From IMG/VR virus record IMGVR_UViG_3300017565_000003: a DNA stretch of 64,000 bases; one strand, given 5' to 3'. This DNA is from a virus. Every line of letters begins with the position of its first letter. Within the stretch, counting starts at the first letter, position 1. The notes below the pieces were generated by a model. The model worked only from the letters and a program-made list of their open reading frames with translations, was not told the origin of the DNA and did no database searches. Below, in pieces: positions 40,184 through 59,986 of this stretch. Made by a program: the position numbers and the translations under genes.

Positions 40184-40657
40184 ACTATCACTCCTTTTGC
40201 GAATGCTAATAATTATGTCAGATAATAAATTATTATATTTCACATTAGCAAAAGTATCAATGATTTTATTTGTGTTTATTAGATAAATTTAATTATGAAT
40301 AGTTTAGTGTGATAAAGGGAGGGAGAAGTGAAGGGAGTTGAAGGAAGTTATACGGTAGGGGAGAGGTGATAATATAATTATGTAAAGTAGATAATTCCAA
40401 GTGGATAAACGCCAGTTTAGACGCTTGACCAAGCATTTAGACGCTCTTGTTCTTTGTCTTAAATGTGCGGTAGGATGTTTTGTTGAGGGTTATAATTGGG
40501 GAAAGCTCAGTTTACAAAGAACGTAAACTTCACCTTGCATTTCCCCAAACCCCATTGCACATAGACTTTTAATAATTGATAAAAAATTGCGGTTTCAATC
40601 TACTAGTATGTACTATAAGGTTTATATAATAGAAGAGAGAAACCGCAAAATTTTAAT

Positions 40658-41736: not shown

Positions 41737-41919
41737 TTATTTATGATTAATTTGTTTGTATTCATCTAAAGCGTTTTGCAGTTGATCATTAATTTCATAA
41801 AGACTAAATATTTTATTCGTATTCATGTCCTTTGCGATTGTAATAAAATAGACCCCTTTTGACTTAAGGAATTGTGACACTTTTTGGTTATAGCAGAAGA
41901 AATAATTAGATTTTTTCAT
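41737..41919 (-). CDS. small DUF5659-like protein
   Basis: F..YNQ....FL..KG.....F.....L..AL..Y pattern shared with two paralogues. Confidence 0.55.
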   Translation of the reverse strand: MKKSNYFFCYNQKVSQFLKSKGVYFITIAKDMNTNKIFSLYEINDQLQNALDEYKQINHK

Positions 41920-42016: not shown

Positions 42017-42787
42017 TTATATTTTTAAGCGATCATTAAGTATTTCTTCAATTTTATCAAAATCCCAATATGGAATACGTAAGAGGGGAATGTTGTTATC
42101 TTTACAGTATTGATTCTTAATTTGATCACGATGTTTTAATTGCTCAAATTGTTCTTTTGCCCATTCTTTACCTCGACTAGCAAAATCAACAGGTTTGAAG
42201 TGATGCTGACCATCATATTCTATTATATGTATTAATTCTTTTTGGTTATTAAATAGAGCAAAATCGAATAACAAGGGTAAAACATGGGCACAATCTTTAA
42301 ACTTGTACTGTACTTCATATATAATTTTATTCTTTTCTACCCAAGTAGCTATAGATTCTTCACCTTTTGAAGAGTTACATCTTGGACATCTTCTTCCATA
42401 ATGAATAAAATTATTAGGTAGGGCATCCCACTCATGACCACATAGTAAATGTTTCATTTTAATAGTGGTATATCTTTCTATGTACTCGCCTAATACGTCA
42501 TATTCACCATTAGTTAATTCCTTAACTTGTTGCCTGAACTCTTCAGTAGTTGGTTTTACCTTACCTGAACATCTAGGACACTTGCTTTTACCAGAAAGTA
42601 AATTACCTGGATAAACATTCCACTTATAACCACATTTGTTATGTCTTATACGCACTGGTTTTGCAACAGTTTTATAAATACCTAATACAGTGTATTCATC
42701 ACCAAAAGCATCTTCAACACGTTTTACCCAATTCTCATGTTTTAATTGAGCCTTTTCTTCTTTTGTTAATTTTATTGCTGTAGTCAT
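42017..42787 (-). CDS. free-standing endonuclease: Zn-ribbon repeats + Vsr/DUF559-like domain
   Basis: H..CG..W...P.N.....CPRC x2; SKGE..FDF..IEYDGQHH. Confidence 0.78.
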   Translation of the reverse strand: MTTAIKLTKEEKAQLKHENWVKRVEDAFGDEYTVLGIYKTVAKPVRIRHNKCGYKWNVYPGNLLSGKSKCPRCSGKVKPTTEEFRQQVKELTNGEYDVLGEYIERYTTIKMKHLLCGHEWDALPNNFIHYGRRCPRCNSSKGEESIATWVEKNKIIYEVQYKFKDCAHVLPLLFDFALFNNQKELIHIIEYDGQHHFKPVDFASRGKEWAKEQFEQLKHRDQIKNQYCKDNNIPLLRIPYWDFDKIEEILNDRLKI

Positions 42788-42883
42788 TATTATTCCTCCA
42801 TTAGTTGCAAAAATTTGTTGAACGCAAAAAAGACCGCACAATAGGTGAGGTCTTGAGTATTGAAATATGTAATTATGTTTAAT

Positions 42884-43045
42884 TTACTTATAATTTTTAA
42901 TTTTCTCTATCAAGTCGTCTGTGTTATTAAATATAAATACATTCCGATTTGATTTATTAGACTTTTCCATTCGTTTGAGTACAAAGCCTTTTTGCATTAG
43001 GTATCCGGCTAAACGTTGATTGAATATGACATATTCTTTTTTCAC
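42884..43045 (-). CDS. small DUF5659-like protein
   Basis: IFNQRLAGYLMQKGF..MEKS..RNVFIFN; paralogue of 56114-56305. Confidence 0.65.
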   Translation of the reverse strand: MKKEYVIFNQRLAGYLMQKGFVLKRMEKSNKSNRNVFIFNNTDDLIEKIKNYK

Positions 43046-43127
43046 AATAATTTCCTCACAATACATTTTGAAAATCTGTACGAAACTTATCTTTTATTTA
43101 ATTTACTTATAAAAATCATAATAAAAT

Positions 43128-43246
43128 AGAGGATAGGACGCTGAAACCCTTGGTACGTAAGGCTTCGTAGCACCTAATCCTCTAAATAGTTGAAAACGCT
43201 GAATTTACCTCATTTTTATTAAGTTAAGATAAAAACCCGAATTTAT
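43128..43246. repeat. accessory element (type B) ending in palindromic junction site
   Basis: AAACCCTTGGTA at 43144, exactly 85 bp before the site at 43229; same at 49490/49575. Confidence 0.7.
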
Positions 43247-43252
43247 TCTAAA

Positions 43253-43489
43253 TTACATTACGTCAATCTCATTCGTATCAACGTCTATCATCTTCTTATC
43301 TACTCCTAATGCCTTAGCTAATATGTTGTATAATTGACGATCTGGATTGACAAACTTACCTTCTAATCCGTTTTCCTTAATAGCTTTCTCAATGCGTTCT
43401 TTTTCTGCTACATCCTTTAAATCAACTGTAATAGTATTAATCATAAAGTAATTATCCTCATAAGAATGGTCAAGAACAACATAAATCAT
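43253..43489 (-). CDS. small hypothetical protein
   Basis: RBS AAGGAGAG; 78 aa. Confidence 0.6.
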   Translation of the reverse strand: MIYVVLDHSYEDNYFMINTITVDLKDVAEKERIEKAIKENGLEGKFVNPDRQLYNILAKALGVDKKMIDVDTNEIDVM

Positions 43490-43593
43490 ATATAGCTCTC
43501 CTTTTTTTATTTTTATTATAACAGTGGAGAAGGGGAGAGTTGTATATATGAATTTTCATTAAGAGTTAATGCGGAATTTTCTCCGATAACATA

Positions 43594-45528
43594 TTAATCT
43601 GTAAAAAAACTAACTGTATTAAGTATTGCAAAGCCAACATCTGTTCCACTCACCGTTACATTTCCGTTTGTATCTACCGTCACACGACAATTTGCCGTTC
43701 CTCCTGCGTTTGTAGAAGAAAAGGTCATAAATTGAGTAGGTCTAAATCCTGAAGGTAACTGAAAGGCTGTACTACCTGATGCTCCACCACCAACAACGCC
43801 TCTTAAGTACACTTTACCCATTCCGTCTTTACGATAAGACACAGGGTGACTAGCATTTTCTGTCCAACTGTTCACGAAGGTCGGTTTAACCCATTTTCTC
43901 AGCGTGTTTGGATTTTTGATGTACTCAACTACATTTCGTTTATAACCACGATACAGTGAACACCAAGTTATATTTGCGCTTCGTTCATTTGGAGTTCCTG
44001 CTGGAGCTCCTATTCCTACTATCAAACGAGAACTAGGTGTGTTTAGCTTGTAAAGGAAGTGAAATTTAACGATACCTTCATACGAGCCTGATTTTCCATA
44101 GTCGCTGTAAATGACGTTATAGCTTTCATCTTGTAAAAGAAAATATCCACCTTCGGTTAAAACACTTCCATTGAGAGATACGGTGTAGTATTTCCCTTTT
44201 TCCATTGGTGCGGTTAACTCGTAAATCCCTGCTGTTGATGATGCGGTTGTTCCTTTTGCTGAGTCTCCGTCAATTATCAAGTTTTGATTATCAAAAGCAT
44301 AGTCTACGTTTGCGAATGGAAATCGAGCAGCTAACACACATTGATCCATATAACTGTTTGAAGCTTCGTAATAAACACTAGACATTCCGTTGTCAAACTG
44401 AACCATAGCAGAAATTGTGTCATTCTTCTTATGGAGAAACATCCCAACATGGTCAATTTTCATAAATGCATTTTCTCGTGCTTCTTGGTTTAGGTCACCA
44501 TTCCCATCAAAGAAAGTCCAACTAAAGAATAAAATATCCCCTGGTTGGAGATTTGAACGATCTTCATTTACTTTAAACGCATAACCTTTGTCGTTTGCAT
44601 ATTTAGCTAATTGATTTGCTAAACGAAATTTGTATCCGTCAATATTTAGAAAGAATAGGTTTGATTCCTTATTTTTTGTTTTCCCGTTATATCTTGAATT
44701 TTCAAAAGGGATACCATGTAGCAATAAGTTTGCAAAGGAACTACAATCAATTTGATATTTACTGTTAACCGTTTGAACGTTAGCGTCATAAGCTGTGTAA
44801 CTATTACCATAGACGAATTGACTAATGTTATCCTCATACGTTTGTGCAATTCTAAGGATTCTTTCAATAATCCCGTCTGAATTATTAATGATCGAAGGCG
44901 ATTCAGCTAAAACGTCACTCACTTCTGCAAAACTAATAGGGATTTCAGTAGAACTTAAAGTAGTCACATTCATCACTTTCAAATCAGAAATATATGCAGT
45001 AAACGATGAAGCGAAATCAACATATAGATTATTATTTGATTGTGTCATGGTTGATAAGTCTAACTCAAATTCAACTTTATTCCATTGATTCGCAATACCT
45101 AAGTTTACGGGCTTACCACTCATATAAGCCATTCTCATGAAAATCGTTTTATTTGAAACGGTAGGATATACATAGAATGAAATCTTTAGTTTTTCACCAG
45201 TAATCATTTTCTCAGTCAACACAAAAGAGAAGTCCTTATTAGGGTCTGTTGATCCTTCATAATTTGTTACTTGGATTTGTAAAGACTTTTTATTACCGTA
45301 TTGAGGCGAGGTTATCCCTGCGGAAAAGGTATAAACTGAACTTCTCGCCTGAATATAAGGCAATTCTTCAAAATCGGAGTTTTTAATTAGACTTTTCTTA
45401 TCTAATAATATTTCTTCTTGATTCGCTTTGTCTGCCAATTGTGAATTAGTTTCCTGTATCTCATCAAACACTGTTTTCTTAGTTATTTTATTTTCAACGA
45501 ATCTTGAGTCAATTCTATTGGTTGACAT
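43594..45528 (-). CDS. tail-fibre-like protein with CBM-like and NlpC/P60 domains
   Basis: IDCSSF...DHVGM Cys/His dyad; C-terminal G.V.LRG...LPSGFRP fibre motif; N-terminal SQLAD. Confidence 0.65.
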   Translation of the reverse strand: MSTNRIDSRFVENKITKKTVFDEIQETNSQLADKANQEEILLDKKSLIKNSDFEELPYIQARSSVYTFSAGITSPQYGNKKSLQIQVTNYEGSTDPNKDFSFVLTEKMITGEKLKISFYVYPTVSNKTIFMRMAYMSGKPVNLGIANQWNKVEFELDLSTMTQSNNNLYVDFASSFTAYISDLKVMNVTTLSSTEIPISFAEVSDVLAESPSIINNSDGIIERILRIAQTYEDNISQFVYGNSYTAYDANVQTVNSKYQIDCSSFANLLLHGIPFENSRYNGKTKNKESNLFFLNIDGYKFRLANQLAKYANDKGYAFKVNEDRSNLQPGDILFFSWTFFDGNGDLNQEARENAFMKIDHVGMFLHKKNDTISAMVQFDNGMSSVYYEASNSYMDQCVLAARFPFANVDYAFDNQNLIIDGDSAKGTTASSTAGIYELTAPMEKGKYYTVSLNGSVLTEGGYFLLQDESYNVIYSDYGKSGSYEGIVKFHFLYKLNTPSSRLIVGIGAPAGTPNERSANITWCSLYRGYKRNVVEYIKNPNTLRKWVKPTFVNSWTENASHPVSYRKDGMGKVYLRGVVGGGASGSTAFQLPSGFRPTQFMTFSSTNAGGTANCRVTVDTNGNVTVSGTDVGFAILNTVSFFTD

Positions 45529-45705
45529 AAAATCATCTCCTTAATAGGAATAAAAAAAGAGACCTCATCTCTGAAGTCTCATGTAAATATTTCTAAATAA
45601 AATTTAATTTTTATCTTGATGAATAAAAGGGTGGGCGAGAGGGATAATAAGTTTTAACATTCTATCACCGCACCTTAGAAGAGGGAGAGGTAAAAGTCTC
45701 CCTAA

Positions 45706-45942
45706 TTATTTCCATTCACCCTTATATTTTTCTAGTACTTCTTTTTGTTTCTTAGCAGTAGGGGAAGCGTAAGTATTTTTCCAAACTGCATATCCAACTA
45801 AAAGTAAAGGAATTCCATTCTCAATTAATCCCATAAAGGAATTAATCATGTCTTCAGTTAAAATGTTGTATCCTATTGAAGCTAAGAATAATTTAAGTGA
45901 ACCTAAAAACCCTGCAATTAAAATCAAATGATCTTTTTTCAT
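45706..45942 (-). CDS. holin
   Basis: Two hydrophobic segments, WKN, basic tail. Confidence 0.7.
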   Translation of the reverse strand: MKKDHLILIAGFLGSLKLFLASIGYNILTEDMINSFMGLIENGIPLLLVGYAVWKNTYASPTAKKQKEVLEKYKGEWK

Positions 45943-45967
45943 TAATAATCACTCCTAATAGTTAAAT

Positions 45968-46309
45968 TTACTTTAAATTAAACATAACAATTAAATAGGC
46001 AAGAACTAATCCACCGACAATTTTTAATACAAAATCAGTTGTTATCTTTTTCTTCTCTTTGTTTCCATCTTCTAATTCGCCAACACGGACATCAAGAGAA
46101 TCCATTTTCCCATTAAGCCTCGTAAGGTTGTCATTAACTTTATCTAATGTATCAGACTGCTTATTATTTGTTTCAATAACCATTTCCATCAAAGTTTCTA
46201 ATCTTGGCATTTTCTCCGATTTAACTTCTAAAGAGTTAAGCCTCTTTTCATGCGAATCAGTTTTTTCTTTAACTTGACTCACTGCTTTCACAATCTCTAA
46301 GTTATCCAT
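45968..46309 (-). CDS. XhlA/BhlA-like lysis membrane protein
   Basis: HEKRL..LE coiled coil + C-terminal TM; adjacent to holin. Confidence 0.65.
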   Translation of the reverse strand: MDNLEIVKAVSQVKEKTDSHEKRLNSLEVKSEKMPRLETLMEMVIETNNKQSDTLDKVNDNLTRLNGKMDSLDVRVGELEDGNKEKKKITTDFVLKIVGGLVLAYLIVMFNLK

Positions 46310-46451
46310 TTTCTCAACCCTACCTTATTAGTTAATAGTGACGAGGTACATAAAATGTGGTAAGATTATTTATGTACTGTAAAGTGCAAAAGACATCTGT
46401 TTGACTCAACCTCAGCAGATGTCTTTTTTTTTATCGCAATATCTTGTGTAA

Positions 46452-47642
46452 TTAAATTCTTTCTATGAAATCTCCGACTCTCGCAGCCATTCTCTTTTGT
46501 CCTTCATTATTAGGGTGAGTACCATCTCCGTTAACAAAGAAATTAGTGTTTTGTGTAGGATTGTATGGAGAAAAGCCGAGATTGCTGTACAAATCGAGAA
46601 CTGGTAAGGAATAATAATCCCCAATACTTTTCACAGCATTGCAATAATCTATCACCTTACTTCCTAAAGCGTTCGTATAGTCTCCATTTGTACCTGATGC
46701 ATTATATCGCCTAATTGGTGTGATCAATCCAATTGTAGTCATCGGATAACGATTTTGAAGGAACTCTATTGACTTTCTATATCTCGAATAGAATGTTGTA
46801 CCGGTTACAGAATCATCAGTAATTGTACCGACTGGAACATTGAAGCCGTGATCATTTGTTCCTGCCATAATTGTGATTAATTTAGGAGCATACTCTGTTG
46901 GTGGCATATTAACTATGACATTATCGTAAATTTGCCCAATTGTATATCCACTTACTGCTTGGTTTTGTACATGTATAAACCTTTCAGTTGATAACAAGTA
47001 ATGATAAGGTTTTGATGCGTAAGCATTACTTGCTCCTTCACCTTCACCCATGCCAGTGCTAATACTGTCGCCTAACACCCACCAAACTTGATTGAACCAT
47101 TGAGATCGGTAATACCCGTTTAATAAATTACTATCTATAATACTTTTTTTGTGGGGTTTATAATCTGTTGTTGAATTGAACCTATACCCACTTTCCAACA
47201 CCATGAATTTATCAATCATAGCAGATGACCAAATTCTTACATAGAGGTATCTTGCGTTATTAGGAGCTTTTGCAGCAAGAGCAGATCCACCTGAAACATA
47301 CACTTCAGAAGCATCGTAGAAACTGTATTGAGAAGTTATTGTATCGCCACGATTAAACGTATAGTTATAACCTGGTTTAACTTCAATTCGATGCGTTTCT
47401 ATTCCACCAGCAATAATATTCCCTGTTGATGAATCATGATATTGACCGTTAACTACTCTTGTTTTGTCAAATAAGTTGTAATATATAATTTCTGTTGTAC
47501 CTACTGCACCACTTCCAGAACTAAGTTCTGATAATTTTTGAGTCAGAGTTTTATTACTTTCTACGTAAACCGCATCTCCTACCGTAATAGGGTACATGTA
47601 TTCATTGCTAGTATTTTTAAGCTTTTTAATTTTACCTATCAT
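46452..47642 (-). CDS. SGNH/GDSL esterase, probably virion-associated
   Basis: LGDSIS, SG, GTND, DGTHP blocks. Confidence 0.88.
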   Translation of the reverse strand: MIGKIKKLKNTSNEYMYPITVGDAVYVESNKTLTQKLSELSSGSGAVGTTEIIYYNLFDKTRVVNGQYHDSSTGNIIAGGIETHRIEVKPGYNYTFNRGDTITSQYSFYDASEVYVSGGSALAAKAPNNARYLYVRIWSSAMIDKFMVLESGYRFNSTTDYKPHKKSIIDSNLLNGYYRSQWFNQVWWVLGDSISTGMGEGEGASNAYASKPYHYLLSTERFIHVQNQAVSGYTIGQIYDNVIVNMPPTEYAPKLITIMAGTNDHGFNVPVGTITDDSVTGTTFYSRYRKSIEFLQNRYPMTTIGLITPIRRYNASGTNGDYTNALGSKVIDYCNAVKSIGDYYSLPVLDLYSNLGFSPYNPTQNTNFFVNGDGTHPNNEGQKRMAARVGDFIERI

Positions 47643-49087
47643 ACAAACGTACCTCCAGTAAGAGTTGCGTGTATACCATTACCACTCTGATCTTGTACAT
47701 TTCCTTTAGTCATATCATAATGCGCAACTAGAACTCCTGCGTTCTTAAACTTAATGTCATAGATTTTTCCTTTCATAAATTCTGTATTATCAAACTTAGA
47801 AAATATTGATACATCATCTGTACCTACCGTAGTAAGTGTAAATCTAATGTTTGTTCTAGTATTACGTGGCACTAGATTATTATTCAGTGCAGTTTGTTTT
47901 GCCCCACCATCAACATAAATACCCGTCCAAACACTTGCGTTATAGGCATCTGCCATACTAGCATTATTTTGAATATAAGAGTTTTCAACACCGCCTCTAG
48001 CATCTAAATAAGTTTGCCAAGTATTATTTTGCTCAGGATGAAAATCCATTACAATTTCATCGAATGTAAGAGATGGAATTTTTATATAGTCACTTGTTCC
48101 ATTCATATCAAGATATAAATAAGTAGGTGTTACCGATTTTGTATAAGTCACTGTTTGAATATCACTATTGTTTCCGGTAGTATCTACGGCATAAGCCTTT
48201 ATTGTATCAGTATCAGTTAAAGTTAAAGGCGCTGTATACTGAACTCTAGTACCCGATTCTATAGGATCTGTATCGTCTAATGTATACCAAATTGTAGCAG
48301 TTTCATTGGTTGACATTATGACTTGTTGCGTATCTGTAAATGTTGCAGCAGGTGTAATTGTTAATATCGGTGCAGTTGTATCAGCAGTAGTTGTAATATC
48401 TATATCTACACCTAATGAAGTATTCCCTGATGAATCTTTTGCACGAACGCTAAATGAATACAAAGTAGAAGGGGATAATCCTGTGATAGTATAACTTATG
48501 TTTGCAGTATTGACTAAGAAAACATCATCTTTGTAGATATCGTATGATGAAATATCAGTAGATGTACTAGCAGTCCAACTTAAAGTTACACTTCTATCTG
48601 ATAGGTTACTAGATGATAAATCCGTAACATTTTCAGGGGCAGTTGAATCAGGTGTAGCAGTTGTGGCATTAACAGATATTCCATTTGAAATATTATTCGA
48701 CGTATCTTTGGTCTTTACTGTAAACGTGTAAGCAGTTGAGGTTATCAATCCACTCACGTTATACGTAGTTCCAGTAACAGTTGAAAGCAAGGTAGACCCA
48801 CGATAAATTTCATATCCACTTACATCTGTTGATGTTGATGCTGTCCAAGACAATGTTAATCCTGTCGTAGTTATATTTGATGTAGATAAATTTGTTACAT
48901 TGTTTGGGGGAGTTGTATCCGTTGTATTAGTATCAATTGCTACACTTTCTCCATCAACCCAATTTTCAAATAAGATTAAGTTGGAAGGAGCTGTTCCGTC
49001 ACCAATCTGTTCAACCCCATCGATTGTGATCCTTCCGTTGTCACTTACTCCGATCCTTGAGTTCCCTTTAAACCTAAAAAAACCCAT
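47639..49087 (-). CDS. fibronectin type III repeat protein with C-terminal LamG-like domain
   Basis: Two Fn3 repeats (LSWTAS..Y..GL...Y.F.V..KD..N). Confidence 0.8.
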   Translation of the reverse strand: MGFFRFKGNSRIGVSDNGRITIDGVEQIGDGTAPSNLILFENWVDGESVAIDTNTTDTTPPNNVTNLSTSNITTTGLTLSWTASTSTDVSGYEIYRGSTLLSTVTGTTYNVSGLITSTAYTFTVKTKDTSNNISNGISVNATTATPDSTAPENVTDLSSSNLSDRSVTLSWTASTSTDISSYDIYKDDVFLVNTANISYTITGLSPSTLYSFSVRAKDSSGNTSLGVDIDITTTADTTAPILTITPAATFTDTQQVIMSTNETATIWYTLDDTDPIESGTRVQYTAPLTLTDTDTIKAYAVDTTGNNSDIQTVTYTKSVTPTYLYLDMNGTSDYIKIPSLTFDEIVMDFHPEQNNTWQTYLDARGGVENSYIQNNASMADAYNASVWTGIYVDGGAKQTALNNNLVPRNTRTNIRFTLTTVGTDDVSIFSKFDNTEFMKGKIYDIKFKNAGVLVAHYDMTKGNVQDQSGNGIHATLTGGTFV

Positions 49088-49101
49088 TTATATCACCTCC
49101 A

Positions 49102-49383
49102 TTAATAAGCTGCTATGAATTTGTATTCAATTCCTGATTCTATGATAACGAAACTCCAAATAGGAGCGTCAATTTCATCCATTTCAAATCCATCTCCTGC
49201 ATCTAAGGCAATTGGATCACCGTTGTTAATTTTAACTCTGCACGATTGTGTATTTTTGAAACTGAATTTATAGAAACTGTAGCCATTTGACCAAGTGGAA
49301 GGGGGAGTAGGTACAACTTCGTGATTAGAGTTACTTATTTGCACACCTGGACTTCCGATGTATCCCGATCCTTTCTGAGACAT
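49102..49383 (-). CDS. small hypothetical beta-rich protein
   Basis: RBS AGGAGG before ATG 49383. Confidence 0.6.
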   Translation of the reverse strand: MSQKGSGYIGSPGVQISNSNHEVVPTPPSTWSNGYSFYKFSFKNTQSCRVKINNGDPIALDAGDGFEMDEIDAPIWSFVIIESGIEYKFIAAY

Positions 49384-49425
49384 TATTTTGTAACCTCCTA
49401 ATTTATTAAATTTACTTGTTTCTAA

Positions 49426-49592
49426 ATAAAACATGAATTTTATCCTGACTTTATTTAAGAAGAGTAGGGGAGAGGGGAATAGAGGCTCAAAACCCTTGGT
49501 ATATAAGGGATTGAGAAACTAATTCTCCTAAACTCCCAATATTACTGATTTTTACTCAATTTTCATGTTTCTAGATGAAATTGTAGTTTTAT
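49426..49592. repeat. gene-less unit: two palindromic junction sites around a type B accessory element
   Basis: ATAAAA-CATGAA-TTTTAT (49426), ATGAAA-TTGTAG-TTTTAT (49575); AAACCCTTGGTA..TAAGGG inside. Confidence 0.7.
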
Positions 49593-49611
49593 TTGAATGT
49601 TAAATTTACCT

Positions 49612-50799
49612 TTATTCAAACATTTCTGAGAAAGTAATCTTTCCAACAATACCATCAGCAAGTAGTCCACGTTTCTTTTGAAATTGTTTTACTGCTGATT
49701 CACAACCATTTCCAAAAACTCCATCGAAGCCTTTCGGATTATATCCTAAGCAGTACATCATACCCTGAATAATTCTAGTAATATTTCCTTTTGCACCCTC
49801 TTTTACTGTGCGAATAGCAGATTCAGTCTTGCTTCCAAATAGTCCATCTACAGCTAATTTAGAGCCATATTGTTTGTTTAATTCAGTTTGCAATGCTTTT
49901 ACTGCTGCTTTCTCTGTATTGTTACCGTATAATCCATCTACACCAATACCCGTTTTATAGTTTGCGTTTAACCAGGATTGGAAAGATCTTATATTATTAT
50001 TTCCACTCATTTTAGAAGGGGTTGGAGTAGGAGAAGAGGCTTTCTTGTAATTTTCTAGTGATTTTTTACTTTGTTGACCGTAAATACCGTCTACGCCAAT
50101 ACCAGCTTCTTTTTGGAATGCAATTAAAGCATCTTCGGTCTTATCTCCAAAGACTCCATCTACAGTGCCTACATTGAATCCTTTTTTATTAAGTAAAGAT
50201 TGTAGTGTTTTAACTGCTTCTCCACGATTACCCTTTCCAAGAAGAGTGGAAGTAGGTTTATTGTAAACAACTTCTGTTTTAACTTGTGTCTTAGGTGCTT
50301 CAACTTTAATTCCGTTGTCTTTATATCCTTTAACTTCACTCATAAATGTTGACTTCTTAATAGATGTACCTGGGCAGGTTTTTGCAGCGTTCTCGTTGTG
50401 AAAGCGAACGTACTTTCCTTTATTGTAAAAATACTTTGCTAATTTCAACATTGAATCTTTTTGAATCCCTTCAAACTTATCGTTTCCAATATCAAAGTTA
50501 CCGATCATTTCAACACAGAAGGGAAGACCATAGTTATGATTCAAAATTGAAGCAGGGTTAGTTCCAAAGTTACGACCTGTCATGAAAATTCCATCAGGGA
50601 AAAGGGTGACGTGTTGAGCAATATCTGAAAATCCTCTTGCTAAATGTGATCTTCTCATCCCATCTTGAACCTTCTGATAGTTACTTCCATTAAAGTTTGA
50701 GTGGTCAGGTCTCCATGTATGATGCACATGTAATTCCCGATGATTATATTTGTCCAAAAGCTTGAGTAACTCGTCAATGGTAATTAATTTGTCTGCCAT
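49612..50799 (-). CDS. endolysin: Amidase_2 + PG-binding_1 repeats
   Basis: HVHHT, VEMIGNF, H...KTCPG; repeated DG..G..T..A...FQ. Confidence 0.9.
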   Translation of the reverse strand: MADKLITIDELLKLLDKYNHRELHVHHTWRPDHSNFNGSNYQKVQDGMRRSHLARGFSDIAQHVTLFPDGIFMTGRNFGTNPASILNHNYGLPFCVEMIGNFDIGNDKFEGIQKDSMLKLAKYFYNKGKYVRFHNENAAKTCPGTSIKKSTFMSEVKGYKDNGIKVEAPKTQVKTEVVYNKPTSTLLGKGNRGEAVKTLQSLLNKKGFNVGTVDGVFGDKTEDALIAFQKEAGIGVDGIYGQQSKKSLENYKKASSPTPTPSKMSGNNNIRSFQSWLNANYKTGIGVDGLYGNNTEKAAVKALQTELNKQYGSKLAVDGLFGSKTESAIRTVKEGAKGNITRIIQGMMYCLGYNPKGFDGVFGNGCESAVKQFQKKRGLLADGIVGKITFSEMFE

Positions 50800-50987
50800 T
50801 ACAAATTCCTCCTTAAAATTTTATAAATATAAAAAAAGAGAAGTAGGGGATTAATCTACTTCTCCATGAAACAAATGATTTATGCAATTTTTATACATTT
50901 CTTAATGTGAAATTACACAATTTTATTACTTCGGAATTTTATCCAATTGCGTGTTACTTAATTGCGTATGTTGAAACAAGATAACAA

Positions 50988-51506
50988 TTAAAATCTAGGT
51001 TCTTTTCCTTGTTTAATTAAATAATCATTTAGCCATTCTGCTGAAAAAATATCGGTGATTTCTATTTCATAATTTAGTATAGAATTCATAATCTCAATAA
51101 CCTTTTCTTTTGTAATAACTTCATCTTCTATATTCCAATAATGATGCACTAATTCTTCTATGAAAACAGTTAATATCAATTGATCACTATATTCTTTTTC
51201 TCTCCATTTTTCTACAGCATAAACAGCTAAATTAAATCTAAAACCTATGGGATACTCTTCTACATCATTTTCATCTTCAATCAACTCAAAAGTCCCATCC
51301 TTAGTTAATAAAACTGTTAGTCGGGCAAGCTGATTCTTTTCGTAGCCTTCTTTTATTAATTGGTTACTTACACCAGTAAGTGCTACTGAAAACAAAAAGG
51401 CTTCCTGTTCTCTAAGTGCAAAGATTGCCCTAATCTCAATTTTATCTAATAGGAAATCAGGAATACTTGGCCCTGATGAAGTAATTTGATTTTTAAATTT
51501 ACTCAT
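50988..51506 (-). CDS. hypothetical protein with zincin-like EELVHH motif
   Basis: 172 aa, RBS GAGGTGA. Confidence 0.55.
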   Translation of the reverse strand: MSKFKNQITSSGPSIPDFLLDKIEIRAIFALREQEAFLFSVALTGVSNQLIKEGYEKNQLARLTVLLTKDGTFELIEDENDVEEYPIGFRFNLAVYAVEKWREKEYSDQLILTVFIEELVHHYWNIEDEVITKEKVIEIMNSILNYEIEITDIFSAEWLNDYLIKQGKEPRF

Positions 51507-51796
51507 TTTCTCACCTCAATAGGTGATTTTCTGCATTTTTATCGGTATTTCCTCTTTTTTCTTATTTAAATCAACAATAATTTCTTTTCTTAAATCGTAT
51601 ATATTAACAGATCCATCTTTTTTAGTCTTACTTTTTTTAAGCATTGCATCGGTTACCATCTATTACCCTCCAATAAAAAAGACATCTCATTAAGAGATGT
51701 CTTCATGTCGTTCCTTCTTCCAAACTTGTATTCCTTGGTCAATTCTCTAAGGTTAATTAATAACCAGTTTACAAGTGCTTCTACTCCGAATGTGAA

Positions 51797-51991
51797 TTAT
51801 TCAAAAAGAGCATATTCTTTATCTATCTGTTTTTCTATATACCATCTGTAGTTATTGTCATTCTTTTTGTCATACCAAGTGCAAGGAAAATCTTCTCCAG
51901 ATATTTCTTTAGCTTTTTGTTCATCAAGTGTCACAAAAATTACATCATATTCATCAAAAGATTCTCGTTCCCAAACAAGATAAATTTTCAT
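51797..51991 (-). CDS. small hypothetical protein (DUF7336-like)
   Basis: MKIYLVW...VIFV...EQKA; its RBS lies within the junction repeat. Confidence 0.55.
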   Translation of the reverse strand: MKIYLVWERESFDEYDVIFVTLDEQKAKEISGEDFPCTWYDKKNDNNYRWYIEKQIDKEYALFE

Positions 51992-52004
51992 AATTAACCT
52001 CCGA

Positions 52005-54854
52005 CTATGCATTCAGCTCAGGTAAATTGTTACCGAAACTATCTCCACCTAATGAGATATACCCACTTAATCTTCCAGATTCTAAAGGTGCATCTTTTTT
52101 AATGATATTAGTCTTTCCTAACGTTTTTGACCAAACGACGTTATTGTAAAAGCTAAACACTGTATCTCTTGCATCATCTGCATTACCGCCTGGTCTGTGG
52201 TTCGCATCTTGAAGAGACAATGCTTCACCATCATCCGTAACAATATGACAATTTTTCACGATTAATTGTTGGTTAGTTGCTCCACTTAACTGATAATTGT
52301 GTGCATACAGAGAACCGTTCATGTGTTTAGTAAATCCATCATCAAATACCCTCTTAATCAACTCACAGTCTTCTAAAATAACCTTTTGTTGATCTCTTAA
52401 TCCAATCCCAATCGCAGCGTGTTGGTGGGATTCCAACAAACAATTTTTAATTAACAGATCCCCAGCAGGAGAATTGTTGTCCATGTGGATTGCATAAGAT
52501 GGAATAGTGTATGAATCTATTGTTGCTTTTTCGTGAGTTGATTTTATTGTCATATTCATAATGTGATTATTCATTCCGATGTTTAATGGAGGAGTATAAT
52601 AGTCACCACTATGATTAACTAATACACATGTTTTCTTATTTACACCTACTATTGAAATGTATCGACCAAGTAAATCGATGCTTTCTTCGTAAGTTCCTGG
52701 CATAACTAAGACTGTCACAGGGTTATCAACATTGTCATTCGCATTGTTCACAGCTTCTAAAATTGTAGGATAATCACCGTTTTCTTTTGCCACTACAATA
52801 ATGTTTTTGTAGCTGCTTCCGGTAGCTAAACCTAAAACCTGTTCTTTATAGATTTGTGGCAGTCCACTTTGAAACTCTGTTTCAGTACTTCCTTTTTCTA
52901 ATTGAAATTTATCCACTTTTGCAGAGGTTATTGTAAACCTTGCGTAACGACAGTTTGAAGGTGTAGTGAAGGTTTTAGTCCCATCTGGCACACCACTAAT
53001 ATACATTTTATTGACATCGTAATAAGCGAATTGCTTATCTTCGTTTTTGGTATATGCTGTACTTGGTTCAAGCTCTATAAAATCTGAAGCATAAAAACCC
53101 TCGATATTACCAGAAAGATTTCCATGTGTATAAGGAATATATCTATTCTTAATAGCTTTTAATTTGTTGAATAGATTTTTTGTTTTAATGTCAGATTGGA
53201 CTGGAGTAAATTCAAGACCAATAATTCTAGAAGATTCTAGTTTAGGTGTGCCACTTTCATAAGAAGTAGCAGAAGACCCTAGTTCTAATTGTAATGTCTC
53301 TAAACCACTTAATAAAAAACTTACTCTTACAAACGCGGCATTTGCAGGTGTAGTAAAAGCATTCGTAGCATCCACTCCACTGATAAATACTTTATTACTA
53401 TCATAAAATGCTTTTTGTGAATTAACAGTGAAATAGTACTTTGTATTAGGAGCAACGGGTATATACTCACTAACTCCATAAGTGGCAAGTGCCTTTAATT
53501 GACCATCGGTATAACTAACATAATAACCTCTAGTTATATTTAGTTTATTAAATAAATTTTTATTTTTTGAAGTTGTCCCTTCTGGTACTTTAAATGCTAA
53601 CTTTTTAGCAGTAACAGCACCGTCAACAAATTTCACAGTTGTCAAACTATCGTCAGGAGGAACCGAATTAACCGGAGTATTGCCAGTCCATTGCTGCTTC
53701 ACTTCATCAGAGAAATATGTTTCATCAAGTAATCCATAATTTTTATTAATTTGCAACACGGAAATATCAGTAGTTGCTTTGTCCATTTTCTCTGTTTGTA
53801 TGGTAGTAATCTCATTCGATTTTTCTGCCAATTGCGAAGTAACTTTTGTTAATTCACTCTCAGTATTATTCAATTTTGTTGCATGATTACTCAATACTCC
53901 ACTGTGGTTTGATACAGTTGTTTGGATATCCGATTGAAGGGGAATTGACTCTGAAAAGTAGTCTACGATAACTTCTGTGCCAGCAGGAAGTCCTTCAGTA
54001 AAAGTTATACTTTGATTAGTGGTTTCTTCATAATTGTCAGGCCACTTTTGTGGAACTCCACCAATTGTAACTTTTGTTCTATATTGAAATTGATCGTACG
54101 TATATTGTAAATTAAATACTTTCTGACCTTCAGTTGCTTCAAAAACATCTCGATGTGTCGTAACTGTTCCCGTTCCGTCATTTCCTTTTCTAGCGACTAA
54201 AGACCAGTTAGGATCAGAAGGGGAGTCTGTCGGAGTGTTTCCTTTGGTTTGTCTCTTAGCCATATAAGAATTTCCATTTAGACTGACAATGTTGTTTTTC
54301 TTATAAGTCGTAGTGGTATTATAAGGTTCAACAAACTTAGTTTCATCTACAATAGCTTGAGTATTAGTAGCAGCAGTTTGAGCTGCATTTGCTTTTTCTT
54401 GTGCTAAATTTGCCTTCTCGTTAGCTAAAGTAGCTGCTGTGTTTGCTTCGTTTTTAGCGATTGAAGTAGAATCAGTTAATTGTTGTAAAACTTCTGTCAC
54501 TTCACCATTCTCATCTGTTTGTGTATATACTCGACTAGAAGGCATGAAAACAATTCCACGACCATAGAATTCGATTGTATAAGTTTTACCTTCATTTAAA
54601 TCATCAAATAGTAAAATCCCATTAGTCCAATCTACTAAAACGTCATCTTGAGAGGGAATTCCTTCACTTATAATATTTAAAGTGTCTGTCTCATTTTTAA
54701 TTGTTAGAGATTGAAATTTGTCTGGGATTTCTTTAAGTTGTATCTTATTGTTTCTTACTTTATCTACTTGATTTATCGGAAAATAAGGATCGTCTGAATT
54801 TCCCTTACGCATCCTATAAATTACTGGGTCTTGATAATTGTCAAGTATCGACAT
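52005..54854 (-). CDS. tail spike/receptor-binding protein with C-terminal pectin-lyase-like beta-helix
   Basis: NLFNK..QLE.G..T.YE repeats; VAK..GDY.TI..A..V.PG.Y.E; internal SQLAE. Confidence 0.75.
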   Translation of the reverse strand: MSILDNYQDPVIYRMRKGNSDDPYFPINQVDKVRNNKIQLKEIPDKFQSLTIKNETDTLNIISEGIPSQDDVLVDWTNGILLFDDLNEGKTYTIEFYGRGIVFMPSSRVYTQTDENGEVTEVLQQLTDSTSIAKNEANTAATLANEKANLAQEKANAAQTAATNTQAIVDETKFVEPYNTTTTYKKNNIVSLNGNSYMAKRQTKGNTPTDSPSDPNWSLVARKGNDGTGTVTTHRDVFEATEGQKVFNLQYTYDQFQYRTKVTIGGVPQKWPDNYEETTNQSITFTEGLPAGTEVIVDYFSESIPLQSDIQTTVSNHSGVLSNHATKLNNTESELTKVTSQLAEKSNEITTIQTEKMDKATTDISVLQINKNYGLLDETYFSDEVKQQWTGNTPVNSVPPDDSLTTVKFVDGAVTAKKLAFKVPEGTTSKNKNLFNKLNITRGYYVSYTDGQLKALATYGVSEYIPVAPNTKYYFTVNSQKAFYDSNKVFISGVDATNAFTTPANAAFVRVSFLLSGLETLQLELGSSATSYESGTPKLESSRIIGLEFTPVQSDIKTKNLFNKLKAIKNRYIPYTHGNLSGNIEGFYASDFIELEPSTAYTKNEDKQFAYYDVNKMYISGVPDGTKTFTTPSNCRYARFTITSAKVDKFQLEKGSTETEFQSGLPQIYKEQVLGLATGSSYKNIIVVAKENGDYPTILEAVNNANDNVDNPVTVLVMPGTYEESIDLLGRYISIVGVNKKTCVLVNHSGDYYTPPLNIGMNNHIMNMTIKSTHEKATIDSYTIPSYAIHMDNNSPAGDLLIKNCLLESHQHAAIGIGLRDQQKVILEDCELIKRVFDDGFTKHMNGSLYAHNYQLSGATNQQLIVKNCHIVTDDGEALSLQDANHRPGGNADDARDTVFSFYNNVVWSKTLGKTNIIKKDAPLESGRLSGYISLGGDSFGNNLPELNA

Positions 54855-54855
54855 A

Positions 54856-56064
54856 TTAATTGACCTCCTTTGAACTGCTTTTTCTTTTTACTAACCATTG
54901 TTCAAACTGAAACAAGGTGTTGTCTCCATAGCCATATATATATTGTGGAAAGAATCTTTATCTTTTGTGTGGCATTTATCACAAAGAGTTATACCATTGT
55001 TCACATTAATTCTTTTTTCTTTACACCAGTTGTACCCGTCTAAATGATGGGCGTTTAAATTTCCTCCTGAATCATCTCCACAACACTGACAAGTATAATT
55101 GTCACGTTGGTAAACTTTTAAACGCCATTCAGAGTATCCTGTCACATTTCTACCAATCTCTCTCTTCTTTTGTGAGAGTATGATTCCACCTAGAATGATT
55201 TTTTCCTCTATTTCTATCAATAAAACAATTTCTACATCTTCTTCCATTTATAAACGCATGTAGTTTTATTTTACTTTCATTACCACAGGCACAAATATAT
55301 CTAAGATTATCATTACTGGAAACATAAGTATCATTTAATAGAACACAGTTGTTTTCTTTAAATACTCTTTTTACAAATTCGATATCATATTTAAGGTTTG
55401 CATTTCTTAATTTTTCAGATCTACAATAACTACATCTATGTCCTCTCATAAAGTTTTCTAAATTTATTGTATCTTGGTTTCCACATTCACATAAGTAATC
55501 TAAGTTCTGACGTATATTTTTGTAATCATTGGATAGTAAAATGCAATCATTTTCCTTGAAAATTTTTCTGACTTCTTCAATTGACTTTCTTAAACGTTCA
55601 GCATTTTTTTGAATGGAGCACATTTTACATCCGTACCCTTTTAAAAGACTTTTAATGGTTAGTTTATCTTCATGTCCTTTGTTGCAAATATATCTATGAG
55701 GTATTTTGTACCCTAAATATTCCTCTTCTAATAGAATGTAATCTTTCTTTTCAAATTCCGTTTTTACTTCTTCGAAAGAATATTTGGTTCTCTTTTTAGC
55801 CCCTTTAATACTTTTACATTCCATGCAAGCATCGCTAGTTGAACCGTCTTTTTTTGATTTATTATATTCACGAAAAGCCTTAAGAATTTTGTTACCACAA
55901 AAATCACATATAACTTGTATTGAAATTGTAGAATTTGGTGAAAGATCGAAAATGTCTATTTCTAATTCACTGTGAATTTTAGTAAACTCATAACCTTTAT
56001 CGATTAATCGTTTTTTATTATTGTTATTCCATTTAATATTTACTTTTTGAGGTAATATTAACAT
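54856..56064 (-). pseudogene. Zn-repeat + HNH endonuclease with two frameshifts
   Basis: Frame breaks in (GA)n near 55160 and (AT)n near 54938; corrected frame gives RDNYTCQCC..AHH..NGITLC..CH..FHNIYGYG. Confidence 0.75.
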
Positions 56065-56113: not shown

Positions 56114-56305
56114 TTAAAGATGGTCTTTGTGGTATTCCATAAAACTGTCGTAATTGCTAATTGCTTTTCTCAATTCGTCTGAATCATTAAATATAAAGAC
56201 ATTCATTTTGTGATTATGCTTGGATTTTTCCATTTTCTTTAAGGTAAAGCCCGATAAGGCTAGATAGCCTGCCACTTTCTGATTGAAAACAACTATTTTT
56301 TTCAA
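56114..56305 (-). CDS. small DUF5659-like protein
   Basis: VFNQKVAGYL..GF.LK.MEKS..NVFIFN. Confidence 0.65.
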   Translation of the reverse strand: MKKIVVFNQKVAGYLALSGFTLKKMEKSKHNHKMNVFIFNDSDELRKAISNYDSFMEYHKDHL

Positions 56306-56331
56306 TAAAGCAACCTCCTTACAAAAAATAA

Positions 56332-56427
56332 AAAAGTTTGTGAAATTTTAGTGTGTTAAAACCCTTATAAATAGTGAGTTTCACAAACTAATTCACAAAC
56401 TTTTTCTTAATAAAAGTCGTATTTTAT
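56332..56427. repeat. accessory IR element (type A) ending in palindromic junction site
   Basis: AAAAGTTTGTGAAATTT identical to 2165-2181; TTCACAAACT at 56392; ATAAAA-GTCGTA-TTTTAT at 56410. Confidence 0.75.
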
Positions 56428-56633
56428 ATTAAATTTATTTTTAATAATTTTCCATCTTCAACCTTGAATAGTTCGGGTGTCATGGTTATATCTATATCAT
56501 CTGTTACAAAGAAATATTGATACTGTTTTTCAGGAATTATTCTTCTTCCAATCTCAGCTTCTAAGAATTGACCTGTTTCACTTACGTTACAAAACACTAA
56601 TATAGGGGAAGGGGAGTAGATGACATCAGACAT
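56424..56633 (-). CDS. small tail-associated protein
   Basis: RBS AGGAGG; follows the Tal-like gene. Confidence 0.55.
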   Translation of the reverse strand: MSDVIYSPSPILVFCNVSETGQFLEAEIGRRIIPEKQYQYFFVTDDIDITMTPELFKVEDGKLLKINLI

Positions 56634-56635
56634 AA

Positions 56636-59206
56636 TTATCCCTCCTGCCAAATTCTAATTATACGAGCATAAGCATTTATTTCACTTGTAGCTGCCCTCA
56701 ATCGAACATAAAATGCTTTTTGTGTTCCAGTGGGTGTTCCTAAATCAATTGTAAGTATTTCACCATGAGTTGCACTTGAGCTACCTTGATTGGTAAATGT
56801 TTTAGTCATCAGGTAAGTTTCAAATTCTGACTCCATAACATAGAAATTACCAGCGTAATTATAAGAATTAGAAGATACATAGTATGCAACTTGCATTTTT
56901 AAATATCTGCCCTCATGTCTGTAGGTATAGAAATTCATATTCTTTGGCGATGTGGCGTTTGTTCTATAGTAAACACCGTCAATAGCTACCGATCCGTCTG
57001 TAGCTATAAAAGGAGGGTCATGAGGGAATACGCTAAAGTTTAAATTGGCATATCCATCATTAATTACATCAAACCCATCAGGTCTTTTAATAGTTATTTT
57101 CTTGGTGACAATCTGACCATTAGAATTAATTGAAAGATTATCTTCCCAAGTTACACCATTATCTGAACTTGTTGAAATTTTGATTCCCTCAGTGGCATTC
57201 ATTGATACTTTTACGGTATTATCTGATTTTTTAACAGTCATTCCAGTTTCAGAATCAATAGATACTCCATTTTGCCCGCCTATAAGGTTAAAGGAAGATC
57301 CCTGGATAGTTGCTCCCTCTGAATCAAATGTAAACTTGCCTGATTCATTCTCAATAATTAAATTTACACCTGCTATAATTTTACCCATTAGACGTTCTGC
57401 AACAATTCCATCAGGTAGAATGGCAGTTTGCCAATCTTGCCCTCCATTTTTACTTAGGGCTAGACAACCAGCTTGGATTATAAGTATATCGTTTGGATAC
57501 TTAGGATTTGTAATCAGAATCCCTCTTTCATTTATCTGAACAGACTCATCTGCACCTGCAATAATCCTTCTTTTTGTCGCATCCCACGTATTATTGATAA
57601 TATCATTAACTTCACCTAAATCGGTGACAGTTTTATTCCACTTATACTTATTCATTTCAACAGATGTAGAAGTGGAGTATGTCTTTTTGAACATTTCCAA
57701 CTCAGGATCTTTTTTCTTAATTTCTCGGATGTCTTTAATCGTTAAACTGATTTCACCATTACTGTAAGATATATCCGAAATTAAAGCTCTAATATTGATA
57801 CCTAAAATTTCATGATAGATGATTACAGAGTCAGACAAGTACAGTTTATCCCAATTCCTCTGTTCTTCAAGCAACTCTAAGAAATTAACAATATCAATAT
57901 CTATTGTAACTTTAGGTTTACGTATCTCTTCAAATTTAAGTTTAGCGTCATCGTATAATTCTTGAATAACTTCATATGAACTATCAGTCCAATTACGCTC
58001 AATAATATATTGGTTACGTTCTTGAATGAGAGTAGGGGAGAAGTTGTTTTCAATAGATAAAGTTGATTTTAATGCAGCAATGTTAGTAGCAACTGTAGAA
58101 ATATTACTTTCAACAGTATCAATTTCACTTTGCTTTGTATTAACTTCAACTTGTTTAGCGCTTAATCTAGTATTTATCTCAGCAGTAGGATCATCATTGG
58201 CCTTAGCAATATCCAACTCATCTTGAATAACTTTCAATTCAGTATTAAGAGTAGCAAGTTCAGCTTCTTTAGTTGCCAATTGTTCATTATAAGTTTTCAA
58301 GTTTGTAAGATAAGTTTGAAATTCACCACTTTTAGATTCTACTAATTCTTCATAGTCTAGGATTGCATGACACAAATCCTCAGACATATAATCACTTTTC
58401 TTAATAGTATTCTTATTCTCATCACGTTCAAAAGGGAAGAGGAAGTAGTTAAAAGATTCAATGTAGTTAGAACCAGTTGGATTAACTGTTTGAATGGATA
58501 CTCCATCTTTGCCAAATACTTTTAATCTAGTAACCATTTCCTCAGCCGAACTCGTTTTATTAACTGATTTAAGATACTTACCGTAAGAGAAACGTAGACC
58601 TCTGTTTATTCCCAGTTGGTCAGGATGTCCTAAGTTGACTCGTCTATTTTCAGTATCAAAAGTAACCATGACACCGAACGTATCAGCAATTTGACTAACA
58701 AAGTCTAAAACAGAAATGTCAGATACATCAAATGATCTATATTTACTTGTTATCTCATTATAGATTGTTCCAACACTCCAAATTGTATCAGAAAGAGCAT
58801 CTTCTAATATTTGAGAAGGGGAGTATGAGGTTACACTTAATGAACCAATTAATTTATCACTTAATTCATACTCTAGTGATTTAGCAGATACTTGCTTAGA
58901 ATCTCCTTCACTTCCTGAAGAGTCGCTTAATTCTGTTATCATGTACCATTGGGAAACATTATTCCATTGAAGTTTAATTAGAAATCTTTCTCTTAATTCT
59001 TCAACTACTTTACTTTTAACTAATTCATGTTCACGTTCGACAAAGTAGGGGACTTGAAAAGATAAAGTTGATAAGTCACTTAGTGAGAAATTAAATGATT
59101 CATCTGAGAAGTCTACAATATTACGTATCTTTTCACGGTTAGGTTTATGTAGAGATAGTTTTAATTTCTTAGGCTTCTTTGATAGTGAAATAGAATGAAG
59201 CAACAA
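56636..59206 (-). CDS. tail-associated hub/endopeptidase protein (YomG/Tal-like)
   Basis: Follows Dit; YGKYLK..TRL..FG; coiled coil; GIVAERL.G. Confidence 0.75.
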   Translation of the reverse strand: MLLHSISLSKKPKKLKLSLHKPNREKIRNIVDFSDESFNFSLSDLSTLSFQVPYFVEREHELVKSKVVEELRERFLIKLQWNNVSQWYMITELSDSSGSEGDSKQVSAKSLEYELSDKLIGSLSVTSYSPSQILEDALSDTIWSVGTIYNEITSKYRSFDVSDISVLDFVSQIADTFGVMVTFDTENRRVNLGHPDQLGINRGLRFSYGKYLKSVNKTSSAEEMVTRLKVFGKDGVSIQTVNPTGSNYIESFNYFLFPFERDENKNTIKKSDYMSEDLCHAILDYEELVESKSGEFQTYLTNLKTYNEQLATKEAELATLNTELKVIQDELDIAKANDDPTAEINTRLSAKQVEVNTKQSEIDTVESNISTVATNIAALKSTLSIENNFSPTLIQERNQYIIERNWTDSSYEVIQELYDDAKLKFEEIRKPKVTIDIDIVNFLELLEEQRNWDKLYLSDSVIIYHEILGINIRALISDISYSNGEISLTIKDIREIKKKDPELEMFKKTYSTSTSVEMNKYKWNKTVTDLGEVNDIINNTWDATKRRIIAGADESVQINERGILITNPKYPNDILIIQAGCLALSKNGGQDWQTAILPDGIVAERLMGKIIAGVNLIIENESGKFTFDSEGATIQGSSFNLIGGQNGVSIDSETGMTVKKSDNTVKVSMNATEGIKISTSSDNGVTWEDNLSINSNGQIVTKKITIKRPDGFDVINDGYANLNFSVFPHDPPFIATDGSVAIDGVYYRTNATSPKNMNFYTYRHEGRYLKMQVAYYVSSNSYNYAGNFYVMESEFETYLMTKTFTNQGSSSATHGEILTIDLGTPTGTQKAFYVRLRAATSEINAYARIIRIWQEG

Positions 59207-59218
59207 AAAACCTCCTTT

Positions 59219-59986
59219 CTAAATGATAAACTCATATTTGAATTGAATCTTACATTTACCTTTTAGATTAATTTTATTTACACCTCTTGGAATGGAAAGG
59301 AAGACATCGTTCGAATTGTCATACAAATAGCGACCAACTATGTCAGTTTCAATTTCTTGGTTTTCACAATCAATTTTAATTTTCTCATCAGCATATAGTC
59401 CTGATATTTCTAACATTTCTCCACCATTAGATAAATTTGTGATTGATATATCTGTATCAGATGTACATTCTATAAAGATAAGGGGAGAGCATTCTTCGTC
59501 TCCATTATTAGTGAAATCAATAATTGTACCTTGAATTGGATTGTTAGATAAATCATAGATTTCACTTGTGTAAACAGGGGAGAAGGCATAAGGGGCATTA
59601 CACTTCATTTCAATTTGAACATATCCCTCTTCAATTCCATTATGTAAAGATCGTGCAGAACCTTGATACATTGCGTAATAAATACGTCCACCGTTATTTT
59701 CAAACCAAAGAGGTTTATAATACTTCTGGTTAATCCATCTTGCAACTTGTCGAACCTTTTCATCAGACATACCTTTTTCAAACCATAGAGAAAGAGGGAT
59801 CACTAATGTGTCCCTCTCAATGTCTTTAAAATATGGTTTATCTCGACCTCTTATTTTCTCTTCATTGATTGTCCGGTCAGCCAGGAAGTGTTCTTCAAAT
59901 AATCCTGAGTCCGTTGAAACTTGAAGTACACCCATGTCTCTACTTTTAATATTGTCGTACATAAAATGCAAGGAGTCTCTTATCAT
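59219..59986 (-). CDS. distal tail protein (Dit, YomH-like)
   Basis: F.YD..S.DMG; Y..L.F...R.YYA; C..PYA; L..G.N. Confidence 0.78.
   Translation of the reverse strand: MIRDSLHFMYDNIKSRDMGVLQVSTDSGLFEEHFLADRTINEEKIRGRDKPYFKDIERDTLVIPLSLWFEKGMSDEKVRQVARWINQKYYKPLWFENNGGRIYYAMYQGSARSLHNGIEEGYVQIEMKCNAPYAFSPVYTSEIYDLSNNPIQGTIIDFTNNGDEECSPLIFIECTSDTDISITNLSNGGEMLEISGLYADEKIKIDCENQEIETDIVGRYLYDNSNDVFLSIPRGVNKINLKGKCKIQFKYEFII

Follow-up and report, generated by a model that had tools for sequence, protein, structure and literature searches.

Within the virus recorded in IMG/VR as IMGVR_UViG_3300017565_000003, of which a stretch of 64,000 nucleotides (nt) was analysed (the window), the genes for a tail spike and for a smaller fibre-like protein share a short element of 25-28 nt, and the nature of this element is the subject considered here. 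The window has a G+C content of 32% across its length and contains no tRNA genes. From 38.5 kb onward, a minus-strand block carries integrase, nuclease, fibre, lysis and tail genes, which comprise, in order of descending coordinates, those for the tape measure protein (59983-63921), Dit (59219-59986), Tal with a YomG_N domain (56636-59206), a split HNH nuclease cassette, the tail spike or receptor-binding protein of 949 amino acids (P0002; 52005-54854), products of 172, 47 and 71 amino acids encoded between spike and endolysin, the endolysin (49612-50799), an FN3-rich protein (47639-49087), a GDSL esterase of 396 amino acids (46452-47642), an XhlA-like protein (45968-46309), a holin (45706-45942), the fibre-like protein of 644 amino acids (P0001; 43594-45528), an HNH nuclease (42017-42841) and a large serine integrase (38567-40243), the sole recombinase seen at the locus. 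The YomG_N domain, the serine integrase and the gene layout together identify this as a large SPbeta-like phage. The spike gene occupies the position expected for a receptor-binding protein: it belongs to the tail module and lies downstream of the genes for the tape measure protein, Dit and Tal.

The shared element was first noticed as a direct match of 22 in 25 nt between 45421-45445 and 53814-53838, coordinates and score that proved exact on re-examination, and it extends to 24 of 28 nt. The spike copy (53814-53841, minus strand) encodes TSQLAEKSN, residues 339-347, inside a helix at the junction between the anchor and the distal module, and the copy in the 644-residue protein (45421-45448, minus strand) encodes NSQLADKAN, residues 28-36, at the C-terminal end of an N-terminal helix. 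Read in frame on the coding strand, the former is T-TCG-CAA-TTG-GCA-GAA-AAA-TCG-AAT (SQLAEKSN, residues 340-347) and the latter T-TCA-CAA-TTG-GCA-GAC-AAA-GCG-AAT (SQLADKAN, residues 29-36). The two proteins are otherwise unrelated, as had been claimed; their best BLASTP alignment is of 15 residues at the shared site itself, with an E-value of 0.72. No other direct pair reaching 22 of 25 nt exists within the 26-kb tail and lysis module (38000-64000), where eight triplet shuffles gave 0, 0, 1, 0, 0, 0, 0 and 0 such pairs, and codon shuffles of the two genes alone gave 0.005. A third copy, weaker and with 78% identity to the copy at 45426, lies inside the Tal gene (58267-58289, minus strand) and encodes NEQLATK, at about residues 306-312, following the Prophage_tail domain.

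The spike is composed of an N-terminal anchor (residues 1 to ~300), a long helix (307-364), two repeats resembling carbohydrate-binding modules (CBMs; ~433-526 and ~554-655, with a weak match to Pfam CBM_5_12) and a C-terminal part that is rich in beta structure and shows a weak pectinesterase-like match. Among PHROGs it matches families of neck-passage and tail-fibre proteins, and it has no match to BppU_N. An AlphaFold2 (AF2) model of the monomer predicts the helix at 307-364, with the motif inside it. Protein searches with the spike recovered 32 relatives covering its N-terminal third only (about 18-38% of the protein); these keep residues 1 to ~340 and then differ in their distal parts, which contain pectate-lyase-like, GDSL, Zn-carboxypeptidase, glycerophosphodiesterase and other Pfam domains. 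The combination of a conserved anchor and differing C-terminal parts, by which a modular receptor-binding protein is recognized, is therefore present in the spike. BLASTP alignments with the relatives of this N-terminal module end between residues 328 and 368, around the motif at 340-345, and the four proteins that share the distal module of the spike begin to match at residues 332, 334, 335 and 337. At the aligned position, at least 10 of the spike relatives carry QLAQ, QLAE or QLAD immediately ahead of the distal domain particular to each, with junction sequences such as ..TAQLAEKATNVKTFGAKGDG.. and ..TSQLADKATKG...

The 644-residue protein is built without a long anchor. It comprises a helix (17-36), a CBM4/22-like sandwich (59-187), an alpha/beta domain (200-410) with conserved Cys262 and His360, a second sandwich (425-527) and a C-terminal knob (548-644). 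The alpha/beta domain is possibly NlpC/P60-like, the NlpC/P60 signal being weak, and PHROG matches to 'minor tail protein' are confined to the C-terminal part. Its AF2 model, with a mean predicted local distance difference test (pLDDT) score of 88, shows the helix at 17-36, which a flexible hinge links to the CBM4-like sandwich; Foldseek comparison of the protein retrieves CBM4 modules together with phage baseplate or fibre chains, and sequence searches of the PDB gave no useful matches. The gene has its own strong ribosome-binding site (AAGGAG) and ATG just after an intrinsic terminator (45559-45580), which lies ~20 nt before that ribosome-binding site. An exhaustive HMMER search recovered 353 relatives with E-values up to 1e-10, and showed that this protein, too, is modular. 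Matches to its best full-length relatives begin at residues 4-36, around the motif at 29-34, and relatives swap the first 26-36 residues for N-terminal extensions of 83-204 residues, BppU_N among them, with SQLAQK or TQLAE at the joint in several cases. On the viral contig L015, a module of this type is fused to a BppU_N anchor and is encoded directly after Tal, and contigs L013 and L014 carry homologues with a short N-terminus as stand-alone genes. The homologue on L013 (9689-11647; 57% identical, with a short N-terminus) is located in the head module, with a gene for a minor head protein on one side and those for scaffold and major capsid proteins on the other, and it may belong to a fibre of the head or neck and not of the tail.

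The GDSL esterase is of related construction. It has a short N-terminus followed by one CBM-like repeat at 56-152, homologous to the two CBM-like repeats of the spike (32% identity, E-value 4e-7), and its module, which in relatives is fused to a spike-type anchor, occurs here without a long anchor. With this esterase as the second, besides the 644-residue protein, the phage carries two or more distal modules, each in a gene of its own.

The four-residue core of the motif, QLA[EDQ], occurs 22 times in 183 relatives compared with 2.8 +/- 1.7 times in shuffled sequences, and the breakpoints in the relatives are grouped within about 15 residues of it. On the strength of this enrichment and of the helices in the AF2 models, both copies are predicted to occupy homologous positions, in a helical stalk between the attachment and distal parts of their proteins. 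We therefore consider it likely that the shared 25-28 nt encode a conserved helical linker between modules of receptor-binding proteins. The linker would take the form, roughly, of (S/T)-x-Q-L-A-(E/D/Q)-K and, in the tail fibres and tail spikes of phages of Firmicutes, would lie in the helical stalk that connects the virion-attached part with a distal part that binds sugars or acts as an enzyme. Each of the two proteins, spike and 644-residue protein, would have inherited it within its own family, and the nucleotide match would arise mainly from identical residues, an AT-rich genome and biased codon use. Over evolutionary time, the modules on either side of the linker would have been re-assorted between phages, in the ordinary mosaicism of receptor-binding proteins. 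The helices predicted for the monomers at 307-364 and 17-36 would belong to a putative trimeric coiled coil. An in-register helix would tolerate such fusions, and joints falling within it would therefore survive. The exchange itself would presumably rely on the homologous or microhomology recombination that ordinarily takes place when phages co-infect a cell, with no dedicated enzyme.

The original prediction had proposed that the copies are in-frame crossover sites for swapping receptor-binding modules, and had named protein-level conservation combined with scattered breakpoints as the outcome that would count against it. The conservation appears to be at the protein level but the breakpoints are clustered, so that half of this outcome is seen. 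The copies stand as evolutionary junctions, at which partners change and the motif recurs; the parts of the proposal that find no support are the bracketing by repeats and the signal in the DNA. The same codon is used at five of the six shared residues (P about 0.06 for at least 5/6, given the codon usage of the window), which constitutes weak support for selection on the DNA itself, and the 9-nt core of the match is a frequent way of encoding a helical peptide that is itself frequent. In relatives further removed, the Leu codon at the motif is TTA or CTT, and other Ala codons are used as well; the Tal of one relative (L008) has DNQLAQK at the equivalent place with TTA.

Several observations nonetheless weigh against the linker reading. 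At the DNA level it could be compared with one close relative only. Megablast against 50,697 phage records gave no match and tblastn only distant ones; scans of viral, genome and metagenome contigs yielded the single 4.3-kb contig L001 (the same as L039), which ends 55 codons past the junction and whose spike shares 82% amino-acid identity with ours over residues 1-318. Nucleotide identity with this contig stops at 53914 (~residue 313) and not at the motif. This loss of identity is due to an extra copy of the preceding domain in L001, the spike of which realigns through ..NEQLAQ and then diverges. Given the divergence of the other relatives, breakpoints are placed at protein resolution only. 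The AF2 model of the spike is poor, with low pLDDT beyond residue 363. QLAEK is, moreover, a helical pentapeptide that recurs widely among phage proteins of no relation to these, which makes the motif alone weakly diagnostic; a DNA scan with CAATTRGCAGAAAAA returned, among the matches listed, mostly unrelated proteins, and no phage literature on the peptide motif came up in a search. Finally, all four QLA sites of the lineage (spike, 644-residue protein, Tal and the L001 spike) are encoded as CAA-TTG-GCA, a count that is biased in that the sites were found through DNA identity. With TTG a minority choice for Leu here (14%) and CAATTG accounting for 14 of 76 QL dicodons, this uniformity hints at some sharing at the DNA level.

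These codon data bear on a second explanation, according to which the linker-coding ~25 nt are a recombination hotspot acting at the DNA level, supplying microhomology for in-frame exchange by a phage recombinase between the fibre genes of co-infecting or resident phages, with selection on both DNA and peptide. The pair is the best direct repeat of the 26-kb module, its codons and the uniform CAA-TTG-GCA are as such a hotspot would have them, the breakpoints of relatives cluster near the motif and similar proposals have been published for other phages. Nevertheless, the codon identity is marginal and was ascertained via DNA similarity, and the Leu codons of distant relatives depart from the proposed DNA form. 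That form is also not generally preferred, at least 65 in-frame QLAEK sites in viral contigs, among the matches listed, dividing into 51 with TTA and 14 with TTG. The two copies differ at 3 of 25 nt and have no homology in their flanks, and no chimera of the two families, combining the spike anchor with the module of the 644-residue protein, was present among the 183 relatives. We judge a hotspot of this kind to be unlikely, if worth keeping in mind.

A third possibility is pure coincidence, in which two helical segments carry the same eight residues with no common ancestry or role. The frequency of QLAEK in unrelated proteins, the unimpressive BLASTP score between the two proteins and the appearance, region-wide, of a match of this quality in one of the eight shuffles would all suit such an account. 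It is difficult to reconcile with an eightfold enrichment of the motif in both families, at the homologous junction in many members, or with a chance expectation between the two genes as low as that obtained from the codon shuffles, and we regard it as improbable.

We place little faith in a more specific proposal, namely that linker DNA with the core CAATTGGCA, which is found in the spike, Tal and 644-residue protein genes and in the spike of the closest relative, is a true splice point at which stand-alone distal modules are grafted in frame onto the spike anchor. If this were true, the gene for the 644-residue protein, and perhaps the GDSL gene, would be a reservoir of host-range cassettes kept outside the tail operon.

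The original prediction had further grouped the junction copies into a wider repeat family, in which CTCCGA-N6-ATT sites at gene ends were aligned with the internal TGCCAA-N6-A(G/T)T and with ATCCAA-TTGCGT-GTT, the whole bracketing the exchanged modules. CTCCGA-N6-ATT does occur in exactly three copies, compared with 0.32 expected, and all three, on the plus strand, are at or next to stop codons as stated: at 43581-43595, just past the stop of the 644-residue protein gene; at 51784-51798, just past the stop of the small gene that follows the spike and upstream of a terminator (51704-51678); and at 51999-52013, overlapping the TAG stop of the spike. The complement of the last contains GGAGG, which serves, again as noted earlier, as the ribosome-binding site of that small gene (ATG at 51991); the first two are judged coincidental. 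The three copies have only their 9 specified bases in common, with unrelated N6 and flanking sequences, and CTCCGA agrees with TGCCAA at 3 of 6 positions, an alignment that is not meaningful. A survey of the 26-kb stretch found about 480 gapped 9-mers with at least three copies per layout and, over 44 layouts, 29 patterns with all copies near stops; randomly shifted stop positions gave 0.046 patterns per layout, or about 2 over the 44 layouts. On the basis of this survey and its shifted-stop control, the CTCCGA triple is within the yield of post-hoc pattern picking. Neither hairpins nor terminators above the level of shuffled sequences were detected at the three sites, and there are no inverted half-sites, the sites sharing 5-9 bases. 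The ATCCAA-TTGCGT-GTT site (50941-50955, plus strand), located between the genes for the 172-residue product and the endolysin, shares with 53828 only the 9-mer CCAATTGCG (two copies, 0.14 expected), and no link between it and the junction is demonstrated. It overlaps a tandem AATTGCGT-N7-AATTGCGT at 50945-50967, intergenic between the same two genes, which may be a regulatory site. No second conserved motif could be confirmed downstream of the exchanged module, the CTCCGA sites offering 9 nt only, and of the bracketing family a single pair is real, its supposed downstream members being 9-nt coincidences or a ribosome-binding site.

These sites had been offered as the basis of a programmed switch by insertion and excision, in which a site-specific recombinase cuts and rejoins CTCCGA/TGCCAA-N6-AnT sites and the module of the 644-residue protein replaces that of the spike. 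The direct, in-frame disposition of the junction copies, the three CTCCGA copies at gene ends and a large serine recombinase gene 3.3 kb from the 644-residue protein gene are what such a switch would call for. The recombinase is, however, of the phage-integrase type (phrog_95), the consensus of the supposed family amounts to about 5 shared bases, the CTCCGA copies lack inverted half-sites or hairpins and comparable triples arise with many other patterns. Deletion between the direct copies (8.4 kb) would yield a product without endolysin, XhlA-like protein and holin, so that the two states would not both be viable. The gene for the 644-residue protein is independent, with its own ribosome-binding site, start codon and preceding terminator, and is not a silent cassette, and homologues with a short N-terminus stand alone in other phages. 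As the direct copies span the lysis genes, the 644-residue protein is encoded by a gene with its own ribosome-binding site and start, no chimera is seen among the 183 relatives and no credible sites exist, a programmed switch is scarcely believable.

Other features of the region were noted in passing. The spike gene is preceded by an insert of ~1.4 kb, situated between a non-coding stretch of 129 nt (56312-56440) and the start of the spike, and containing a small gene (56114-56305) and an HNH nuclease. The 129-nt stretch matches, at 98.4% identity, the DNA immediately preceding the spike gene in L001 (2733-2861 of that contig), the genes flanking it are only 79-85% identical to L001, and it includes the palindrome TAAAAGTCGTATTTTA; by sequence, the insert looks like a homing-nuclease cassette placed exactly at the spike start codon. 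The nuclease within it is split into two overlapping frames, one zinc-finger-rich (55150-56064) and one with the HNH motif (54891-55247), which suggests a frameshift or a decayed gene. Small paralogous genes at 42884-43066, 56114-56305 and 41737-41919 each lie just upstream of an HNH nuclease gene, the first two being 55% identical. With one such cassette downstream of the 644-residue protein gene and another upstream of the spike, mobile nuclease cassettes flank the whole block of spike, lysis and fibre genes. Exact TAAAA-N6-TTTTA palindromes occur seven times (1.3 expected), three of them intergenic in the tail and lysis module (45598-45613, between the holin and 644-residue protein genes; 49427-49442; and 56411-56426) and four more in 2-22 kb. 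Two gene-less stretches, 43060-43260 and 49406-49612, are 75% identical and have a common AAACCCTTGGTA core. In addition to the terminator preceding the 644-residue protein gene, a second strong intrinsic terminator (51678-51704) follows the small gene downstream of the spike.

Returning to the helical linker, the joint shows where the receptor-binding proteins of this SPbeta-like phage divide into anchor and distal modules. The motif marks this joint in many fibres of Firmicute phages and should be useful for annotation and for comparisons of host range; no new recombination system is revealed.

The arrangement can be compared with three kinds of known system. In common with Mu Gin, P1 Cin and the shufflons, a single genome holds alternative C-terminal fibre modules that join in frame through a short conserved stretch. 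Those systems, however, rely on inverted repeats and a dedicated adjoining invertase and are viable in both states, whereas in this phage two direct copies are separated by 8.4 kb that include essential lysis genes, there is no recognisable site, and the only recombinase seen is the large serine integrase. A closer likeness is to the tailspikes of Escherichia coli phages, in which conserved motifs flanking the regions that encode receptor-binding domains have been proposed as recombination hotspots (PMC10408124), and to the distal fibre motifs of T-even phages (Tetart et al. 1998, as cited in PMC10408124). As in those phages, a conserved anchor is combined with many alternative distal modules through a short conserved junction stretch, and exchange is deduced by comparing relatives. 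Breakpoints coincide with the motif here too, at protein resolution only. The differences are that the motif is a helical peptide in Firmicute phages, apparently conserved at the protein level, and that no downstream conserved motif is confirmed.

The third comparison is with the baseplate and receptor-binding proteins of BppU type, found in siphophages of Gram-positive bacteria, in which a BppU_N anchor is followed by a helical stalk and a distal carbohydrate-binding domain. The spike differs from these in its anchor and the 644-residue protein in its lack of a long one, yet relatives of both distal modules are fused to BppU_N (L015 and P0029), and in both architectures a helical stalk separates anchor from distal module, with the motif located in that stalk.

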